From: a virus
Taxonomy: Duplodnaviria > Caudoviricetes
Length of the DNA stretch: 64,000 nt
Virus record (IMG/VR): IMGVR_UViG_3300032038_000003
Span: 1-64,000 of that record
Strand: one strand, 5' to 3'
Each line of letters begins with the position of its first letter. Position 1 is the stretch's first letter. Shown here piece after piece: positions 977-16,521 of this stretch. Under the pieces are notes generated by a model. It ran no database searches. It saw only the letters and a program-made list of their open reading frames with translations, and was not told the origin of the DNA. Made by a program: the position numbers and the translations under genes.

Positions 977-1282
977 ATGAAAGACATTATTGTAAGAACT
1001 ATTAACAAGTATCAGACAGAGGTTATTGTAGAAGGTAGAAGAGTAGTATTAACTGATATGAAGAAAGTTAATGCTGCTAAGGCTAAGAGAAGAAAGGTTG
1101 GTAATATTATTATCAATACTGTTTTAGTAATCGCTTTTGGTGCATTAATGCTTTGGGAAATCTGGTTGTTCTTTACTTATGATGAAGGACACTGGGAGGC
1201 TGATTATGTTAATGAGGAGGGTCAGTTTATTGATATCGATGGCGATGGCGATTGTTATCATTGGGTTGACCCTGTTAACTAA
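977..1282 (+). CDS. Small single-pass membrane protein
   Basis: AAGGAGG SD; hydrophobic stretch IIINTVLVIAFGALMLWEIWLFF. Confidence 0.8.
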   Translation: MKDIIVRTINKYQTEVIVEGRRVVLTDMKKVNAAKAKRRKVGNIIINTVLVIAFGALMLWEIWLFFTYDEGHWEADYVNEEGQFIDIDGDGDCYHWVDPVN

Positions 1283-1976
1283 TCAGCTCTAAGAATAGAC
1301 AATAGCCCAGATATAGAATCTATGTTAAAAAGGTTTTTATTAGATCTTTAACAGATTATATATTAACCTTCGGTTATGGGGCGACAAAGAGAGTCGCCCT
1401 ACAGGGCATCGTTGTATCAGATGAAAAGAGCCAGTGAGAGTTTTCTCACTGGCTTTGCTTGCAAAGCAAGCAAAGTATAATCTATTTTAGCTTAAATGTC
1501 AATAGCATTAGACATTATTCTCTGGTTTATTTAATAAAATATGCTATCGAGTGCTGTTCGATAGTATATTAAGAGAATAAGTATATGCTGTCGCTAGGCG
1601 AGGGATCCTGGTCCCCCATAGAGAAATCTTTGATTCTTGGCTAAAATGTAGCTTATAGCTATATTATACTCTTTTCGTTTATTCTTCTGTCTATTCTATA
1701 TATTCCCCTATAGTGTATAAGTATCTTACCATATATAAGTACTCTTTTATCTCTTATATATTCTTGAGATTAGTTAGACGCTCTTATCCAAAAGTTAATC
1801 TATTCTCTATTCATTTTACTATGCTTTTGGATATTATTTATCGTCTTTGCTTAAAATAATATACACTATTCTTTTTGCTTTTGTGTAAGGGTAAGCTATA
1901 TTTCCTGTAGTTTTCTCTTACATTTTATATATATCACCTATTAACTTATTATTCATCCATAGAAAGGAGAACTATT

Positions 1977-3146: not shown

Positions 3147-5861
3147 ATGATGAACAATAATACTGTTAAGGAACTCAGAGAGATGGCTAAGGTTGCTGGT
3201 ATCGTTGGATATAGCAAGATGAAGAAAGCTGAGCTTATTGACGCTCTTGCTAATGTTGCTGCTAACGAGATGGTTGAAGAAGTTGTTACAGAGTCTGCTG
3301 TTGAAGAGCGTAAGACCATTCCTGGTGATGGAATGATGATCTGCTCTTTCACCTATGCTGCTACTATGGCATGTGCAATGCGTATCATCACTGAGAATGA
3401 GTACGATGTATTCGTATCTCAGATCGCTACTGTTAATTCGCTTGAAGAAGCTTATGAGAATGTTAAGCTTCGCAAGCTTATCCAGAAAGTTCCTTCTGTA
3501 TTCCAGATTAGACATGAAGGATGTAAAGGTATCGTTGTTAAGTATCCTCTTGAGTTCATCGACGAGCTTAAGGATAAGGATCTGGTTATCACTGATGGAG
3601 CAAGAAAGTTCGCATCTCAGAACTGGGAAGAAGCTCCTTTGGAAGTATGTAATTACTTAAAGAGAAAGGATAAATGGGTTGCTCTTAATCCTCAGTTCAT
3701 CCAGGCTCTTAAGTTCGAGAATCCCAACGCTTTAATTCCCGTTGTGGATTTCTGGTTCAATAAGCTTGAGGAATCTGTAACTGATATCGCTAAAGCTCAG
3801 GAGTTCCATGGAATTATCTCTTCTGTAGATGGAGCAAGCGATACTAATAGCAACCTCGTTGTTGCTCTTCGTAACTCAAGTGACCTTGTTGATGATTTCC
3901 AGGTTATCAACTGGAGAAGACAGCAATACGAGAAGTTTATCACCGATATGAAGGTTGGTAGAGTTCTCGTTCCTGGTGAGTATACTTACATGGTATGTGA
4001 TCCAGCATACATGCTGAATTCTATTTATGGCCTTAACCTTAACGCCCTTGCATCTGGAGAATACTGGTTTAATAACCATGTAGGATTTGCTGGAGCATTT
4101 AGATCTCCTCTTATCGCTCCTTTCGAAGCACAGAAGTTCAATTGTGTTGAGAGAGAAGACTACTGGTTCTTCAAAGATATCGTAGTATTTAATGGCTATG
4201 ATGGTGCTTGGGAGAATATGGGCGGTGCCGATTTCGATGGCGACACTTGTGCTATCGTTCCCGACAATACAGATCTTGGCAAGATCATCGTTGATGGTAT
4301 CCGTTCTATGAACTATGTAGTATGGGAGCCTGGTCTGTCTGCTGTAAAAGAAGAGTTCTCTTGGGAGAATATGGCAAAGTTCAATGCTAAGGTTGCGAAA
4401 GTTGACCGTACTGGCATCATTACGAACTATGCATCCAGAGCCATGGATATCTCTAATCACCTTGAGTCTTGCATCTACTTTGCAAAGATGATGGGTTGTG
4501 TTGGTATCTATATGGTACATCCTTCTGAGGTTCAGAATTCTTCTGAAATGAAGCCTCACACTATGACTATTAATGGCGAGAAGTACTTCGCCATTCGTGG
4601 TCTCGTACATGCTACAGAGAAAGATGGCGTTGTTCGTTATGATAACGATGGCATCTATGGCATCAAGACATTTGACCAGGTTCAGAAGATCGCTGATGAA
4701 TATCTGGCAAAGGTTGAGTATCTTCGTCTTATGCAGGGTAGAGAGATTGACTCTGCAAAGACTGGTGTTGCTGCTGAAGGTATGAGTGGACTGGATTTTG
4801 TTGACTCTGTTAAGGTTGAATTCACTCCCCAGGAGATGATTACCAGAGTTGAGGTTCTTGGTCGTCCTGTAGCAAAGTTTGCTCAGCTGAACAAGTATCA
4901 GTCTCTGTCTCCTCTGGCAAGAGTACATGATTATGTTGAGCAGAAGGGCCTTGAATTCATGAATCGTTTTGCAAATGGTTCCGATAAGGTTGCTCTCCTT
5001 CTTAAGCTGTTATCAGCAGAAGAGAATGCTCAGCTTAAGATGAATGTTTCTTTTGCTGATGGACGCATGATGACTCTGCTTGACTATCTTAAGGCTCGTA
5101 AGTCTGAGTATGGTAAAAAGATGTCTGAAATCTTCAAGGCTGAATTACCCGATGAAGAACTTAAGGATGTCATCAATGGTCTCAAGACAAACGAGATTAA
5201 TACTCTTAACCAGCTTGCAGTAAACCTCAAGGTTTCTGTTGAGGTTATCGCAGTTGCTTGTTATATCGTTGCTTATACTAAGGACGGTAACTTTGGTACT
5301 GGTCTTACTTATGGCTGGTTACTCTTTGACGAGCTTCTGTCTGTATTCACAAGAAACAACAAGAAGTTTGAGCTTTACAGACTTCCTCGTTATGCTGAAG
5401 AGGTTTCAGTATCTGCTGGATATCTCTATGTAAATGAGAAGGAGTATGCTCCTATCGACGATGTTGATGATTGTGAGTATGTTCCTGTTCAGCTTATCAA
5501 TGGAAAGCCTTATGCACTGATCCACAAGAGAAGTGAAAAGGTTGTTGCTGTTGTTGCAAGCCAGAATGTTGGTGCTGTTTATACCATCGACATGATTTAT
5601 GGCTTCAAGTATTCTTGTGGTTCCAAGGACGAGTGGAAGAGAATCGTTAAGGAAAACGGTTATGTATTTACTGTTGACTTTGATGAAAACTCCAGACTGT
5701 CTGTTCTTGTTAACGGTGTTGTCATCGGTGCTATCAAGGCTACTGTTGCTGATCTTCACATTTCTGAGCTTGTTGGACACGAGGTAAAGGCTATTGGTTC
5801 TCCCGATTATAAGGAGACCGAGAATACTATCGCTAACCTCGTTGTTCGTGTAGTAAAGTAA
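3147..5861 (+). CDS. YonO/RdRP-like two-barrel RNA polymerase, catalytic part, with N-terminal Rho_N-like domain
   Basis: PGDG, FQIRHEGCKG, RSP and catalytic GGADFDGD motifs; N-terminal TVKELREMAK..GYSKMKKAELIDAL is Rho_N-like. Confidence 0.9.
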   Translation: MMNNNTVKELREMAKVAGIVGYSKMKKAELIDALANVAANEMVEEVVTESAVEERKTIPGDGMMICSFTYAATMACAMRIITENEYDVFVSQIATVNSLEEAYENVKLRKLIQKVPSVFQIRHEGCKGIVVKYPLEFIDELKDKDLVITDGARKFASQNWEEAPLEVCNYLKRKDKWVALNPQFIQALKFENPNALIPVVDFWFNKLEESVTDIAKAQEFHGIISSVDGASDTNSNLVVALRNSSDLVDDFQVINWRRQQYEKFITDMKVGRVLVPGEYTYMVCDPAYMLNSIYGLNLNALASGEYWFNNHVGFAGAFRSPLIAPFEAQKFNCVEREDYWFFKDIVVFNGYDGAWENMGGADFDGDTCAIVPDNTDLGKIIVDGIRSMNYVVWEPGLSAVKEEFSWENMAKFNAKVAKVDRTGIITNYASRAMDISNHLESCIYFAKMMGCVGIYMVHPSEVQNSSEMKPHTMTINGEKYFAIRGLVHATEKDGVVRYDNDGIYGIKTFDQVQKIADEYLAKVEYLRLMQGREIDSAKTGVAAEGMSGLDFVDSVKVEFTPQEMITRVEVLGRPVAKFAQLNKYQSLSPLARVHDYVEQKGLEFMNRFANGSDKVALLLKLLSAEENAQLKMNVSFADGRMMTLLDYLKARKSEYGKKMSEIFKAELPDEELKDVINGLKTNEINTLNQLAVNLKVSVEVIAVACYIVAYTKDGNFGTGLTYGWLLFDELLSVFTRNNKKFELYRLPRYAEEVSVSAGYLYVNEKEYAPIDDVDDCEYVPVQLINGKPYALIHKRSEKVVAVVASQNVGAVYTIDMIYGFKYSCGSKDEWKRIVKENGYVFTVDFDENSRLSVLVNGVVIGAIKATVADLHISELVGHEVKAIGSPDYKETENTIANLVVRVVK

Positions 5862-6458: not shown

Positions 6459-7220
6459 ATGCTGTTTACTGGTAGTATTAAGGATATCGACAAATCAAAA
6501 TATGATGAAATTTGGATTATTGCCAGAAAGATTGGCAATGTACAGACTGGTGGAAATATATATCATGTTCCCCAGTTAGCTCCAAGCTATGACTTGCTGA
6601 ATCGTTATTTGTCGTGGAGGTCACAGGGTATCTGGAATAAGAATCAGTTTGATACTGTTTATACTCCACAATTCTTAAACGAAATGCAAATGCCTATGGC
6701 ACAGCAGTACTTAAGACTGTTGCAATCCAAATCCAAGGAGAAGGATGTATTGATCTGTTGTTTTTGTAGAGACGAATCAATATGTCACAGAACTCTCGTG
6801 AAAAGAATTATAGAATCTATGAATAATTCTTTTTATTTATTAGTTGCTGGATCTCGTGGTTTTAATAATTATCCTCTTCTCAAAGAGAAGTTGGATTATC
6901 TTTTACAGAACCAATCTGATAAAGAGATCCATATTGTTTCTGGTGGTGCTAAAGGAGCAGATACTCTTGCTGAATGGTATGCCAAGGAGCGTGGTTATCA
7001 AATGCATGTATTCCCAGCTGATTGGAATCGCTTTGGTAAGTCTGCTGGTTATCGTCGTAATGAACAAATGCATCAGTTTATCTCTCAGTTTCCAAAGAGA
7101 GGGTGCGTTTGTTTCTGGGATGGAGAATCTAAAGGTACTCAACATAATTTCAAGTTATGTGAAACCTACGGTACTCCTCTTCGTAAGATCATGTTTCAGC
7201 CTAATTCTCTCAGTCTTTAA
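6459..7220 (+). CDS. DUF488-like domain fused to SLOG (YspA/DUF2493-like) domain
   Basis: LAPS..CFCRDESICHR N-domain; VAGSR..VSGGAKGAD..ADW..GKSAGYRRNEQM C-domain. Confidence 0.75.
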   Translation: MLFTGSIKDIDKSKYDEIWIIARKIGNVQTGGNIYHVPQLAPSYDLLNRYLSWRSQGIWNKNQFDTVYTPQFLNEMQMPMAQQYLRLLQSKSKEKDVLICCFCRDESICHRTLVKRIIESMNNSFYLLVAGSRGFNNYPLLKEKLDYLLQNQSDKEIHIVSGGAKGADTLAEWYAKERGYQMHVFPADWNRFGKSAGYRRNEQMHQFISQFPKRGCVCFWDGESKGTQHNFKLCETYGTPLRKIMFQPNSLSL

Positions 7221-12285: not shown

Positions 12286-13260
12286 ATGTTCGAAAATTTT
12301 GACCCACGAAATGATGATGATTTAAAAAGACTGTTTAGCTATCTTGAGAAAGATAAGTTTAACAGTCTTTCTTTTTCTGATCAAAACTCAGTTATTGATA
12401 CTTTAATCAGCATCTCTAATAAAGATTGTGGTGATTCAACTGTAAAGACAATTGGAATGATGAAAGGTTCCAATGGTTTCACCAATTTCGATCTTCAATC
12501 CATTATAGACAAAATGGGTTATGAACCTTTTAGAGAAATGATGCGTGAAGCTATTTCAAAAGGTGGACTTACAACCAATTCTGTCAATGCATCAGAAATT
12601 ACAAACCTTGTAGAGAAAATGAAAAACGGAACTCTTACTGAAAAAGAGAGAGAGGCACTTGATGCTATTATGAGCCATGAACATCTTCATTGTAACGATC
12701 AAGAAGACGTTCAGTTCTCTACATATTCTATCGTTCATTTGTATACTAACTTGTTAGATCAGTCAATCAAAGATAAGGAAGTTACTCTTTTAAGAGATGC
12801 AGAACCTTTTATCAATGCTGCGTATATTACATTATTAGCTTCGCTTATCTCTAAACCAGATAATGCAATCGGTAAAATGTTCGACAAGCATGGCTTTGAG
12901 AAAGTACAAATGGGTATCATTGATCTTACTGTTAAATTTTCAAATATGATTATTGATTACAGTAAGGATAATAATATTGCACCAGAAAGAACACTGATTG
13001 CATTGGCAAATGTAATTAAGATTCTTGCTGGTTCATTAGATACTTCATTAGATGCTTATCCAGATGATATGCTTGAAGATGTTTTATCTCATGTACTTGC
13101 TGCTGTTTATGATATTGATTCACCTTCATCAGTAGATGAATTACGAAAAGGTTCCAAAGACGATAAGGAAAACAATGATAGTACCAACAAATCGGCTAAC
13201 GCCGACAAAAAGGAATCTCAAAGTGATAAAGATATAAGAAAATTATTACTTGATGATTGA
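12286..13260 (+). CDS. Hypothetical protein
   Basis: ORF with SD. Confidence 0.8.
   Translation: MFENFDPRNDDDLKRLFSYLEKDKFNSLSFSDQNSVIDTLISISNKDCGDSTVKTIGMMKGSNGFTNFDLQSIIDKMGYEPFREMMREAISKGGLTTNSVNASEITNLVEKMKNGTLTEKEREALDAIMSHEHLHCNDQEDVQFSTYSIVHLYTNLLDQSIKDKEVTLLRDAEPFINAAYITLLASLISKPDNAIGKMFDKHGFEKVQMGIIDLTVKFSNMIIDYSKDNNIAPERTLIALANVIKILAGSLDTSLDAYPDDMLEDVLSHVLAAVYDIDSPSSVDELRKGSKDDKENNDSTNKSANADKKESQSDKDIRKLLLDD
13192..13205 (+). promoter_or_regulatory. Hairpin promoter candidate 9 (3' end of CDS, upstream of RNA region)
   Basis: TCGGC-TAAC-GCCGA, GGA at +12..14. Confidence 0.6.
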
Positions 13261-13292
13261 CAAAGTGTTATATGTAATTTAAAATAACACTT
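13257..13292 (+). promoter_or_regulatory. sigmaA promoter overlapped by AAGTGTTA/TAACACTT inverted repeat (possible operator)
   Basis: TTGACA-17-TAAAAT. Confidence 0.65.
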
Positions 13293-13381
13293 GCATACTT
13301 TTCAAGCCAACTTATCCTTTCGAGGATTTAGTTGATAGGTGAAAGTGGCGTATAGGAGTCCATCCTCTCTGTACGCTACAT

Positions 13382-13433
13382 CGGGGTGTGGCTCAGTTTG
13401 GCTAGCGTGTGAGTTCAAGTCTCACTACCCGCA
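13382..13433 (+). pseudogene. tRNA-Pro-like remnant lacking the whole anticodon arm
   Basis: CGGGGTGTGGCTCAGTTTGG joined almost directly to T arm GTGAG-TTCAAGT-CTCAC. Confidence 0.6.
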
Positions 13434-13553
13434 CTAAAGTAATAAGTCAAAAACAGTTTGTAGAACAAGGATCGCAACCTTGGCTGGGCTGGAATATACT
13501 ACATCAAACCCCGATTGGGTAGGTCATTCCAGCCTTTCTTGTTACTTTTAATT

Positions 13554-13571
13554 TGCGACCTATCGGTCGCA
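13554..13571 (+). promoter_or_regulatory. Hairpin promoter candidate 10, upstream of large ncRNA
   Basis: TGCGACC-TATC-GGTCGCA, GGAA at +12..15. Confidence 0.75.
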
Positions 13572-13596
13572 TAATGGAATTTAGAGTTACTATTTT

Positions 13597-14331
13597 CTAT
13601 AAGGTATATACACTACCCTAGTGCAGATTGACTAATCATCATGCTAGGATATTGTCCAGACGCACGAACGAAAACAGAAGGATACTTTTGTTACCGAGTC
13701 GTTATGCGATGCTATAAGAGCTTGCTCGAAGGCGGAACATTGAATGGGGAATCCCAAAGTATTGGACGGTAGTGTATTTATATCGAGAGCGTTAGTGTGA
13801 CATGCTTGTGGTTGTCGTAATAGGAGTGAAAAGCGTTCATCGGTGTCTGCTTGCAGATGCTTATGGATGAATCTGTAACTTAACGCAGATATACTCTACC
13901 TTGATAACTCACCAGTCTGGTAAACTGGGGGAGTATTAGAAGTTCAAGGAAACACCAAAACCAAGACAATTCGCCGTGAACCATAGTAATATGGGTATAA
14001 CGCAAGCATAAGTCGCAAGTAGCCCAAGGCGAAAAAAACTTTCATAATGCTTCATATAGGAAAAATATGAAAAATTGAAAATCTGAATGATTTGGGTGAA
14101 AGCTGGGGGTATCAATCCCTCATGAGTGGTTATAGTATGTAGGTAGCACCACCCTTGCTTCGGCATGAGGTAGGAGCACCACTGCTATACATGGGAAAGG
14201 CTTCGGCTGATTACTGGTGCAAGAAGTTATAGGGTAGCTCCTTATAGCTCAGACTTGTATCCTCATTCGCATAATAAACATGGTTGATATAATTGTAAGG
14301 TGAACAAAAGCCTAGTGTGTATACCTTATAG
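13597..14331 (+). ncRNA. Large structured ncRNA, ROOL-like
   Basis: 19-bp closing helix 13597-13615/14313-14331; no credible ORF; many hairpins; adjacent to tRNA. Confidence 0.65.
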
Positions 14332-14431
14332 AGCGTAGTAGCTCTGATGGTTTTTTGGTCAAACCAATACCTCTTACTTCTGTGGGGAAAACAGAGGCGT
14401 AAAGCGGTGCGAACGTTATCGCATCGCATTT

Positions 14432-14503
14432 GGTCGGTTGGTCAAGCGGTTAAGACATTGCCCTTTCACGGCAGTAACACGAGTTCAAATCTCGTACCGA
14501 TCA
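14432..14503 (+). tRNA. tRNA-Glu(TTC)
   Basis: Full cloverleaf, anticodon TTC at 14465-14467. Confidence 0.95.
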
Positions 14504-14539
14504 TTTCTCCTATCAGAGAAGGTTTATTTTTCAATTTTC

Positions 14540-14580
14540 AATCCCCAGTCCATAAGTTTTGGGCTGGGGAATTTTTATTT
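14540..14580 (+). terminator. Terminator after tRNA-Glu
   Basis: TCCCCAGTCC..GGGCTGGGGA + T run. Confidence 0.7.
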
Positions 14581-14595
14581 TGAGGAGGTTAATGT

Positions 14596-15780
14596 ATGAA
14601 ATACTATCCATTGGAATGTGTAGATAGAATGTTAGAAACAGAACCGCCAGAGAAAACATTACAGATGATGAAAGATAAAGATATGTGCGATCCAGATTCA
14701 ACTGTAGCTGACCTTGAAGATTATGCATTTGATTTATTTTTCTTTACACCAGAATATAAAGGAAAGTTTGAAAAGTGGAATAATGAAATCATGTATAATA
14801 CTATGGTAAACAAGCTTTTCTTTCCTATGTATTCTATGAAAGATTTTGATCAGCGTTCTACTGAGTGGAAAGATGTATTAACTACTAATCTTGTTTTATC
14901 TACATGGATGAAATTCAAAATGGTCTATAAAATAGATAATGATTTCTTTCATGAGATTAAACAAACAGAGAACCTTATTACATCTAAAGAAATGTTTGAT
15001 AAGTTACCATTCAAATGTTTCTTTATTGATCTTACTGAAGTAGATAATATAGCCAACTTTAAAGGTGCATGGGTATATATTACTACAGATGATATCCATG
15101 GTAATAAAGATTTCTATAGTGTTAATATCTATATGGTTCAGAATGATAACTTTACTTTCTTTACATATTATTCCTGGTATAAGTTTACAGAAGAACAACA
15201 GGAAGTAGAATGGCATTCAGATGATTTACCAAAATCAGATTTCATAGCAAGAACATTTGTAGGTGAAGATGATTTAATGACTAAAGACATTAGGAGTTTA
15301 TTAGATAATCCTACAGATTTTACTAAAGACGGTTTAATTGATGTTACTCTGGATATGCGAGATGAATATGATCCAAGAGAAAGTATAGTTGTATCAATCT
15401 TTCAAATTATGTCTTTTATTGCTATTGATGCATCTGATGTTAATGAAAATGCTACAACAAAATCAACATACAGACCACATAAAGAAGGTTCAAAGATCAA
15501 GAATAAGTTTTCTGAGATTCGTATGTGGGATGTTGGTGTTCAATATGGTAAAGCTATTCGTGTTGCAAAACGAGAATATAAAAAGCATATTGAAAGAGAG
15601 AATGATCCTGTTGAGAGTAAGGATCGTAAACCAGTAAGACCACATATCAGAAGAGCACATTGGCATAAATATCATGTTGGTGAGGGTAGAAAAGAAACCA
15701 AGACTTTATGGCTTGCTCCAGTATATGTATGTGGTAACGGTAAAGAAATTCCAGTAACGATTAGGGAGGTAAAGAAATGA
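14596..15780 (+). CDS. AcrVA2/FinQ-like protein (putative)
   Basis: C-terminal RPHIRRAHWHKYHVG..LWLAPVYV motif; LPFKCFFID. Confidence 0.55.
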   Translation: MKYYPLECVDRMLETEPPEKTLQMMKDKDMCDPDSTVADLEDYAFDLFFFTPEYKGKFEKWNNEIMYNTMVNKLFFPMYSMKDFDQRSTEWKDVLTTNLVLSTWMKFKMVYKIDNDFFHEIKQTENLITSKEMFDKLPFKCFFIDLTEVDNIANFKGAWVYITTDDIHGNKDFYSVNIYMVQNDNFTFFTYYSWYKFTEEQQEVEWHSDDLPKSDFIARTFVGEDDLMTKDIRSLLDNPTDFTKDGLIDVTLDMRDEYDPRESIVVSIFQIMSFIAIDASDVNENATTKSTYRPHKEGSKIKNKFSEIRMWDVGVQYGKAIRVAKREYKKHIERENDPVESKDRKPVRPHIRRAHWHKYHVGEGRKETKTLWLAPVYVCGNGKEIPVTIREVKK

Positions 15781-16292: not shown

Positions 16293-16520
16293 GGCGTGAA
16301 AGTTGAGGAGATATGACGATCCTATGGAGACCATGGGCAAAGTAGAGGAGGAATTGATCCAATAGTACTTGCGGTTCAAACAAATGAAGCTATCTTATGG
16401 CTAAGACATTGTATTATCCTAGTGTAATGTATTCACTTAGGCGTAGCGTTGTAAGAAAGAATAAAGAAAGTAATGAATTTGTAATAACCTAGTGGGGTGT
16501 GAATCCCTACCACGTCACCA
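16293..16520 (+). ncRNA. tRNA-like RNA ending in T arm, acceptor strand and encoded CCA
   Basis: GGCGTG pairs with CACGTC-A-CCA; GTGGGG-TGTGAAT-CCCTAC. Confidence 0.45.
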
Positions 16521-16521
16521 T

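Follow-up and report, generated by a model that had tools for sequence, protein, structure and literature searches.

ROOLs are large phage RNAs that self-assemble as hollow cages. The family was described by Weinberg et al. 2017 (PMC5737381) and Cousin et al. 2017 (PMC5643018), and cryo-EM structures of ROOLs were reported by Kretsch et al. 2025 (PMC12286853). Transcription of ROOLs together with tRNAs has been proposed (PMC5737381); when the ROOL of Lactobacillus salivarius was deleted, no clear function emerged (PMC5643018). In the solved cages, helix P7, which is not always conserved, forms a ring at the apex, and an A-rich linker is disordered and lies inside the cage (PMC12286853). A review notes that the hexamer and the octamers differ at the apical region (PMC12990946). 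GOLLD, another large and ornate RNA from the tRNA islands of phages, likewise forms cages and has a variable 5' domain.

In this study, a ROOL was identified in the window, a stretch of 64,000 nucleotides with which a virus record of 210,314 bases begins; the record has a single copy. The Rfam model RF03087 (ROOL) covers positions 13593-14332 in cmscan along its whole length (model positions 1-574), with a score of 234.4 bits against a cut-off of 99.1 (E 5.6e-52), whereas the GOLLD model (RF02032) gave no match in the Rfam search even at E up to 10. No Rfam family besides ROOL and tRNA was matched within 13200-14620. The original prediction had assigned the RNA to the ROOL class from motifs that resemble ROOL and proposed a comparison with both Rfam models; the full-length match bears the assignment out. 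The motifs are all present: CAAGGAAAC and the stretch GGGTAGCTCC..GCTCAGAC fall on the Rfam consensus in the alignment, whereas TAGGAGTGAAAAG enters a lineage-specific insertion. A 763-nt stretch of the locus folds far better than its shuffles (z -6.6), the multi-stem core P4-P9 and the 3' hairpins are present in the cmscan alignment, and 88 of the 190 pairs of the consensus fold changed on both sides. The RNA is a full-length ROOL with intact, covarying helices. It is highly probable that the locus is an unexceptional ROOL gene, probably functional, within the tRNA island of a large rumen phage, and that a second, competing helix at its 5' end is a by-product and not a selected switch.

Related loci were collected by a conserved 3' motif, which retrieved about 310 loci and, from these, 63 non-redundant full-length ROOLs. 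Four of them are close relatives (L142, L201, L013 and L215; identity 85-63%). Three other searches added no relatives: in named phage genomes the tRNA-Glu was the sole match, the exact 23-nt motif was absent from the viral contigs, and a search for related loci through two flanking proteins returned none. The RNA agrees with the ROOL family in its whole-model match, helices P1-P3, conserved core and 3' motifs, position in a phage tRNA island and rumen habitat. It differs in length (740 nt here; ROOLs average 581 nt, and env-120 has 659), in a P7 that forms a three-way junction of 70 nt, in a variable insertion of 86 nt towards the 3' end, and in a preceding DNA hairpin of a phage family, which stands before only 5 of the 63 sampled ROOLs. 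Measured between two anchors, its 640 nt exceed the length of every other ROOL in the sample of 63 (median 491), and three internal insertions account for the surplus: 31, 65 and 86 nt stand in place of 16, 13 and 14 nt in the model. Within this sample, its distinctive features are the greatest length and the 70-nt three-way junction at P7, the latter found in five phages. The features of the locus are listed in Table 1.

Table 1. Features of the ROOL locus and its surroundings (window positions)
Feature	Position	Strand	Basis or remark
Sigma-70-type promoter match, 11/12	13257..13285	+	Possible upstream source of a read-through transcript
tRNA-Pro 5' part fused to tRNA-Leu 3' part, without anticodon arm	13382..13434	+	Scar of a deletion of about 680 bp, by comparison with L142
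DNA hairpin, 7-bp stem, loop TATC	13554..13571	+	Candidate phage promoter; compensatory stem changes in four relatives
ROOL RNA	13593..14332	+	RF03087 full-length match; 13583-14345 if the extended closing stem is counted
P1, 5' strand	13583..13615 (core 13597-13615)	+	18-19/19 pairs kept in four relatives; 8/19 change on both sides
Alternative helix, 5' arm	13608..13617	+	Inner P1 strand plus two bases; not conserved
P2 hairpin, standard ROOL	13617..13648 (13617-13621 x 13644-13648)	+	100% of cells paired; 3/5 pairs covary
P3 multi-stem domain, standard ROOL	13650..13771 (13650-13657 x 13764-13771)	+	100% of cells paired; 5/8 pairs covary
Alternative helix, 3' arm	13768..13777	+	P3 end plus conserved GYGY junction segment
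Enlarged P7 (by helix order), three-way junction with two hairpins	13823..13897	+	Fold; 22-27/27 pairs and same fold in four relatives
A-rich variable linker	14024..14080 (limits approximate)	+	Model alignment
UCUGA linker flank	14082..14086	+	Complementary to UCAGA 14249-14253; putative pseudoknot; invariant in A1
Variable insertion, 86 nt (model 14)	14128..14213	+	Sequence and length differ in relatives
Self-complementary AGCU loop	14236..14239	+	Candidate symmetric kissing loop between half-shells; invariant in A1
P1, 3' strand	14313..14345	+	Partner of 13583-13615
tRNA-Glu(TTC)	14431..14504	+	Downstream neighbour also in 3/4 relatives
Intrinsic-terminator-like hairpin	14542..14570	+	After tRNA-Glu

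The enlarged P7 sits after a conserved AAUAG motif and measures 70-73 nt in the five related phages, whereas the other inspected ROOLs carry a single short hairpin, mostly of 12-24 nt. The order of helices in the published covariation table suggests that this element corresponds to P7. By analogy with the solved cages, an enlargement at the site of the apex ring may alter the pore or the number of chains. Because this site differs in size between the solved hexamer and the octamers, the enlarged P7 would offer a natural test of what determines cage size. ROOL has three pseudoknots, for one of which a candidate was mapped: the UCUGA linker flank and its UCAGA partner may correspond, by their complementarity, to the interaction of this type described for ROOL (PMC12286853). 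Similarly, the AGCU loop has, at the level of sequence, the self-complementarity of the symmetric kissing-loop bridge that the 3' hairpin forms in ROOL cages (PMC12286853, PMC12990946), onto which it can be tentatively mapped.

The promoter hairpin of the original prediction, which was given without coordinates, is presumably the hairpin at 13554-13571. In the four relatives it lies 54-58 nt from P2, and it precedes none of the 58 other ROOLs. It belongs to a family with the loop TATC or TAAC closed by a C-G pair, and these are the two commonest loops among the short perfect hairpins of the genome. At least 17 copies with stems of at least 4 pairs lie on the plus strand of the first 80 kb (936-66687), where the genes run in the plus direction; on the minus strand of the same 80 kb, 21 such loop sequences include no hairpin. 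Purines occur at +11 and +12 after the loop in all 17 copies, and copies precede protein genes too. The family recurs seven times in L162. Since the purines stand at a fixed distance, the ROOL transcript is predicted to start at G13576/G13577, 6-7 nt before P1.

This layout resembles the promoters of the N4 virion RNA polymerase, which likewise have a short inverted repeat with a variable stem, a C-G closing pair, a template loop of the form G...A and a fixed distance to a purine (PMC4496689). In N4, a sheared G-A pair stabilises the template hairpin (PMC4496689). Here the template strand reads C-G(A/T)TA-G, so that the loop starts with G, ends with A and is closed by C-G, and the copies share one orientation, a fixed loop and closing pair and a fixed spacing to the purine. 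The phage also has polymerase candidates of its own. One, of 904 aa (window 3147-5861), matches Pfam RdRP (E 5e-20) and Rho_N and contains DFDGD; a search of solved structures with this candidate returned none. The other, of 3391 aa (genome 136882-147057, minus strand), contains DFDGD. There are also differences from N4: the loop has 4 nt instead of 3, the predicted start is 13-14 nt away from the centre of the loop (11 nt in N4), and the N4 reader is a T7-like virion polymerase, whereas the candidates here look two-barrel (DFDGD, Pfam RdRP). The family layout, the N4-like template loop and the encoded polymerase candidates together make it plausible, and somewhat probable, that the hairpin is a phage promoter.

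Alternatively, the hairpin may be an RNA processing signal or a protein-binding site, with ROOL made only within a long tRNA-island transcript. This is possible, though the less favoured reading. A second family hairpin at 13196 and the sigma-70-type match lie upstream and could give read-through; contigs from RNA libraries span the hairpin and the region upstream of it, and such a transcript would agree with the supposed co-transcription of ROOLs and tRNAs (PMC5737381). However, a start site accords with the fixed-distance purines after each of the 17 copies, and the N4-like template (PMC4496689) and the copies before protein genes also argue for a promoter. The promoter and processing readings can both hold. 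A 9-bp inverted repeat at 13263-13292 overlaps the sigma-70-type match and could be an operator.

Transcription would most likely start at the upstream hairpin by a phage-encoded RNA polymerase, and read-through from the upstream tRNA unit is also possible. The transcript would run through tRNA-Glu to the terminator-like hairpin and then be trimmed. As the model match and covariation show, the RNA folds like a standard ROOL, with P1 as its closing stem, and its homology to the solved ROOLs suggests that RNA-only cage assembly is most likely. The alternative helix may form for a time in the unfinished transcript; the longer P1 would then displace it. Because ROOL lies behind a hairpin of the phage family in the co-oriented first 80 kb, its production may be controlled by the phage during infection, which, if true, would constrain its time of action. 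The hairpin family is more surprising than the ROOL itself and constitutes a separate finding. One further member does not answer the question of ROOL function; a scaffold or container acting with the RNAs of the tRNA island during infection is our tentative, rather doubtful guess.

The 19-bp pairing of the two ends claimed by the original prediction was confirmed. Positions 13597-13615 pair with 14313-14331 at 19/19 with one G-U, and the helix extends outward into a 33-nt inverted repeat (13583-13615/14313-14345, 85% complementary). Across P1, P2 and P3, 97.9% of cells are paired over six sequences and 16 of the 32 pairs changed on both sides, whereas slid controls gave 28-51%. The 19-bp helix is the ordinary ROOL closing stem P1, covarying in the relatives. 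Its length is no special feature and was rejected as such (39 pairs here, against a median of 35 in other ROOLs). The "extra 5' domain" of the prediction does not stand: 13593-13785 aligns to model positions 1-180, which are the standard P1, P2 and P3, and the P3 domain (13650-13771) makes up the bulk of it.

The mutually exclusive 5' pairing is also present as predicted, with 13608-13617 and 13768-13777 forming 10/10 Watson-Crick pairs. It excludes P1 and also competes with P2 (by one base) and P3. Among dinucleotide shuffles, 2% gave one of the 10-mers within the first 45 nt a perfect 10-bp partner, and 19% contained a perfect 10-bp helix at some place in the RNA; by these frequencies the helix is modestly unusual, not extreme. 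Equilibrium folds, which take no account of kinetics, of tertiary contacts or of P2 and P3 having formed earlier, favour P2 and P3 up to 13772; in 3'-truncated folds ending at 13778-14315 the alternative helix has a probability of about 0.9 and is 3.5 kcal/mol better than P2 and P3, whereas in the full RNA it falls to 0.0 and P1, P2 and P3 reach 0.96. The difference between truncated and full folds makes the intermediate thermodynamically reasonable for the sequence of the window.

It could be proposed that selection maintains the alternative helix as a folding guide: during transcription it would sequester the 5' strand of P1 and hold back P3 and the core until the 3' end has been transcribed, restricting cage assembly to full-length RNA, and different lineages would use differing sequences and registers. 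A change from the alternative to the native fold is indeed predicted exactly as the 3' strand of P1 appears. However, the helix is poorly kept. The window has all 10 pairs, and the relatives keep 9, 7, 5 and 4 of 10 with increasing distance, whereas P1 keeps 18-19/19 in all four; in alignment A1, 43 of 60 cells are paired, decaying with distance. The predicted probability of the helix is 0.9 in the nearest relative and 0.56, 0.23 and 0.0 in the others, so that it is lost in two of the four. In addition, RNA contigs of relatives differ at 13777, which disrupts the end pair of the helix.

In the window's register, none of the 51 other ROOLs has 5/6 pairs (3.6 expected; median 4/10). The published ROOL covariation table partners env-120 positions 1-17 only at 642-659 (power 0.94-1.0), and a pair matching the alternative helix is absent from it. 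In the same 51 ROOLs, complementarity between the two segments is nevertheless somewhat higher than after permutation of the partners (z -4.3 to -5.6, with non-native controls at -2.6 to +2.6). With one sequence per broad clade this excess drops to a median z of -1.3 to -2.1, and permutation within clades gave p 0.0055 or lower at broad cuts but 0.15-0.17 at tight clades. It arises in a few clades, with differing registers. At a register shifted by one, 13 ROOLs have 5/6 pairs, which is not significant (p 0.063) and comes mostly from one part of the tree, and many ROOLs are without such pairing. We attribute the family-wide excess to shared descent and to a junction motif that is partly complementary to itself.

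In a conserved conformational switch, both exclusive helices would be conserved with compensatory change, and here the alternative helix is not. Thus the co-transcriptional switch of the original prediction is predicted as a folding event for the RNA of the window and for its nearest relative, but the alternative helix is not conserved and so gives no support for an evolved switch. A selected folding guide is unlikely; the alternative helix is at best a lineage-limited folding intermediate and probably incidental. Even less likely is a distinct ROOL subfamily that is transcribed by the phage's own two-barrel RNA polymerase from a DNA-hairpin promoter, forms a cage of different pore or chain number through its enlarged P7 and uses the transient 5' helix as a checkpoint that delays assembly until transcription is complete. 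A decaying remnant, in which the loss of neighbouring RNA genes and the insertions would mark a non-functional ROOL, is hardly credible: two nearby deletions relative to L142 (the tRNA-Pro/Leu fusion and a missing tmRNA) are in its favour, but all tested helices are intact, the P7 insertion is shared with the same fold in four relatives, and near-identical sequence occurs in an RNA library.

The ROOL body is covered by contigs of four RNA libraries from four rumen studies, which speaks for its presence in RNA libraries only, as contigs show no strand, ends or level and gaps in their coverage prove nothing. In one run, several contig pieces are identical to the window. The runs holding the stretch are mostly bovine gut metatranscriptomes. 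Contig depth is above the flanks over the ROOL body, and this is no expression measure, since contigs cannot rank parts of the region. One run shows an 89-nt "skip" at 13703-13793, with undefined letters between.

The ROOL gene belongs to a tRNA island, and six tRNAs were counted in all. The tRNA-Glu lies 99 nt downstream of the model end, and four more tRNAs lie within about 3.3 kb. The order tRNA-Pro/Leu, hairpin and ROOL is common to the four relatives, with tRNA-Glu next in three. The tRNA-Pro/Leu fusion is not an assembly error, because a contig from an RNA library crosses the junction with no difference in sequence. In L201, a match to the Pistol ribozyme (1251-1323, minus strand) lies between tRNA-Pro and tRNA-Leu, in the stretch lost in the window. 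In L142, a tmRNA (6603-6975) lies between the tRNA-Gln spacer and tRNA-Asn and is missing almost exactly at window 16519-16521; the spacer at 16293-16520 is also present in L142.

Between the tRNA scar and the hairpin, 13435-13548 forms a closed structured domain with no Rfam match, which is conserved in L142 and partly in L201. Right after P1, a small hairpin insertion at 14346-14371, absent in the three closest relatives, carries a weak terminator-like site. A contact between a ROOL loop region and the tRNA-Glu leader (13704-13717/14416-14429, 13/14 complementary) was considered and rejected, as it is kept in L142 only. On one further contig (L160, 970-2351, minus strand), GOLLD, a tRNA and ROOL occur in tandem.
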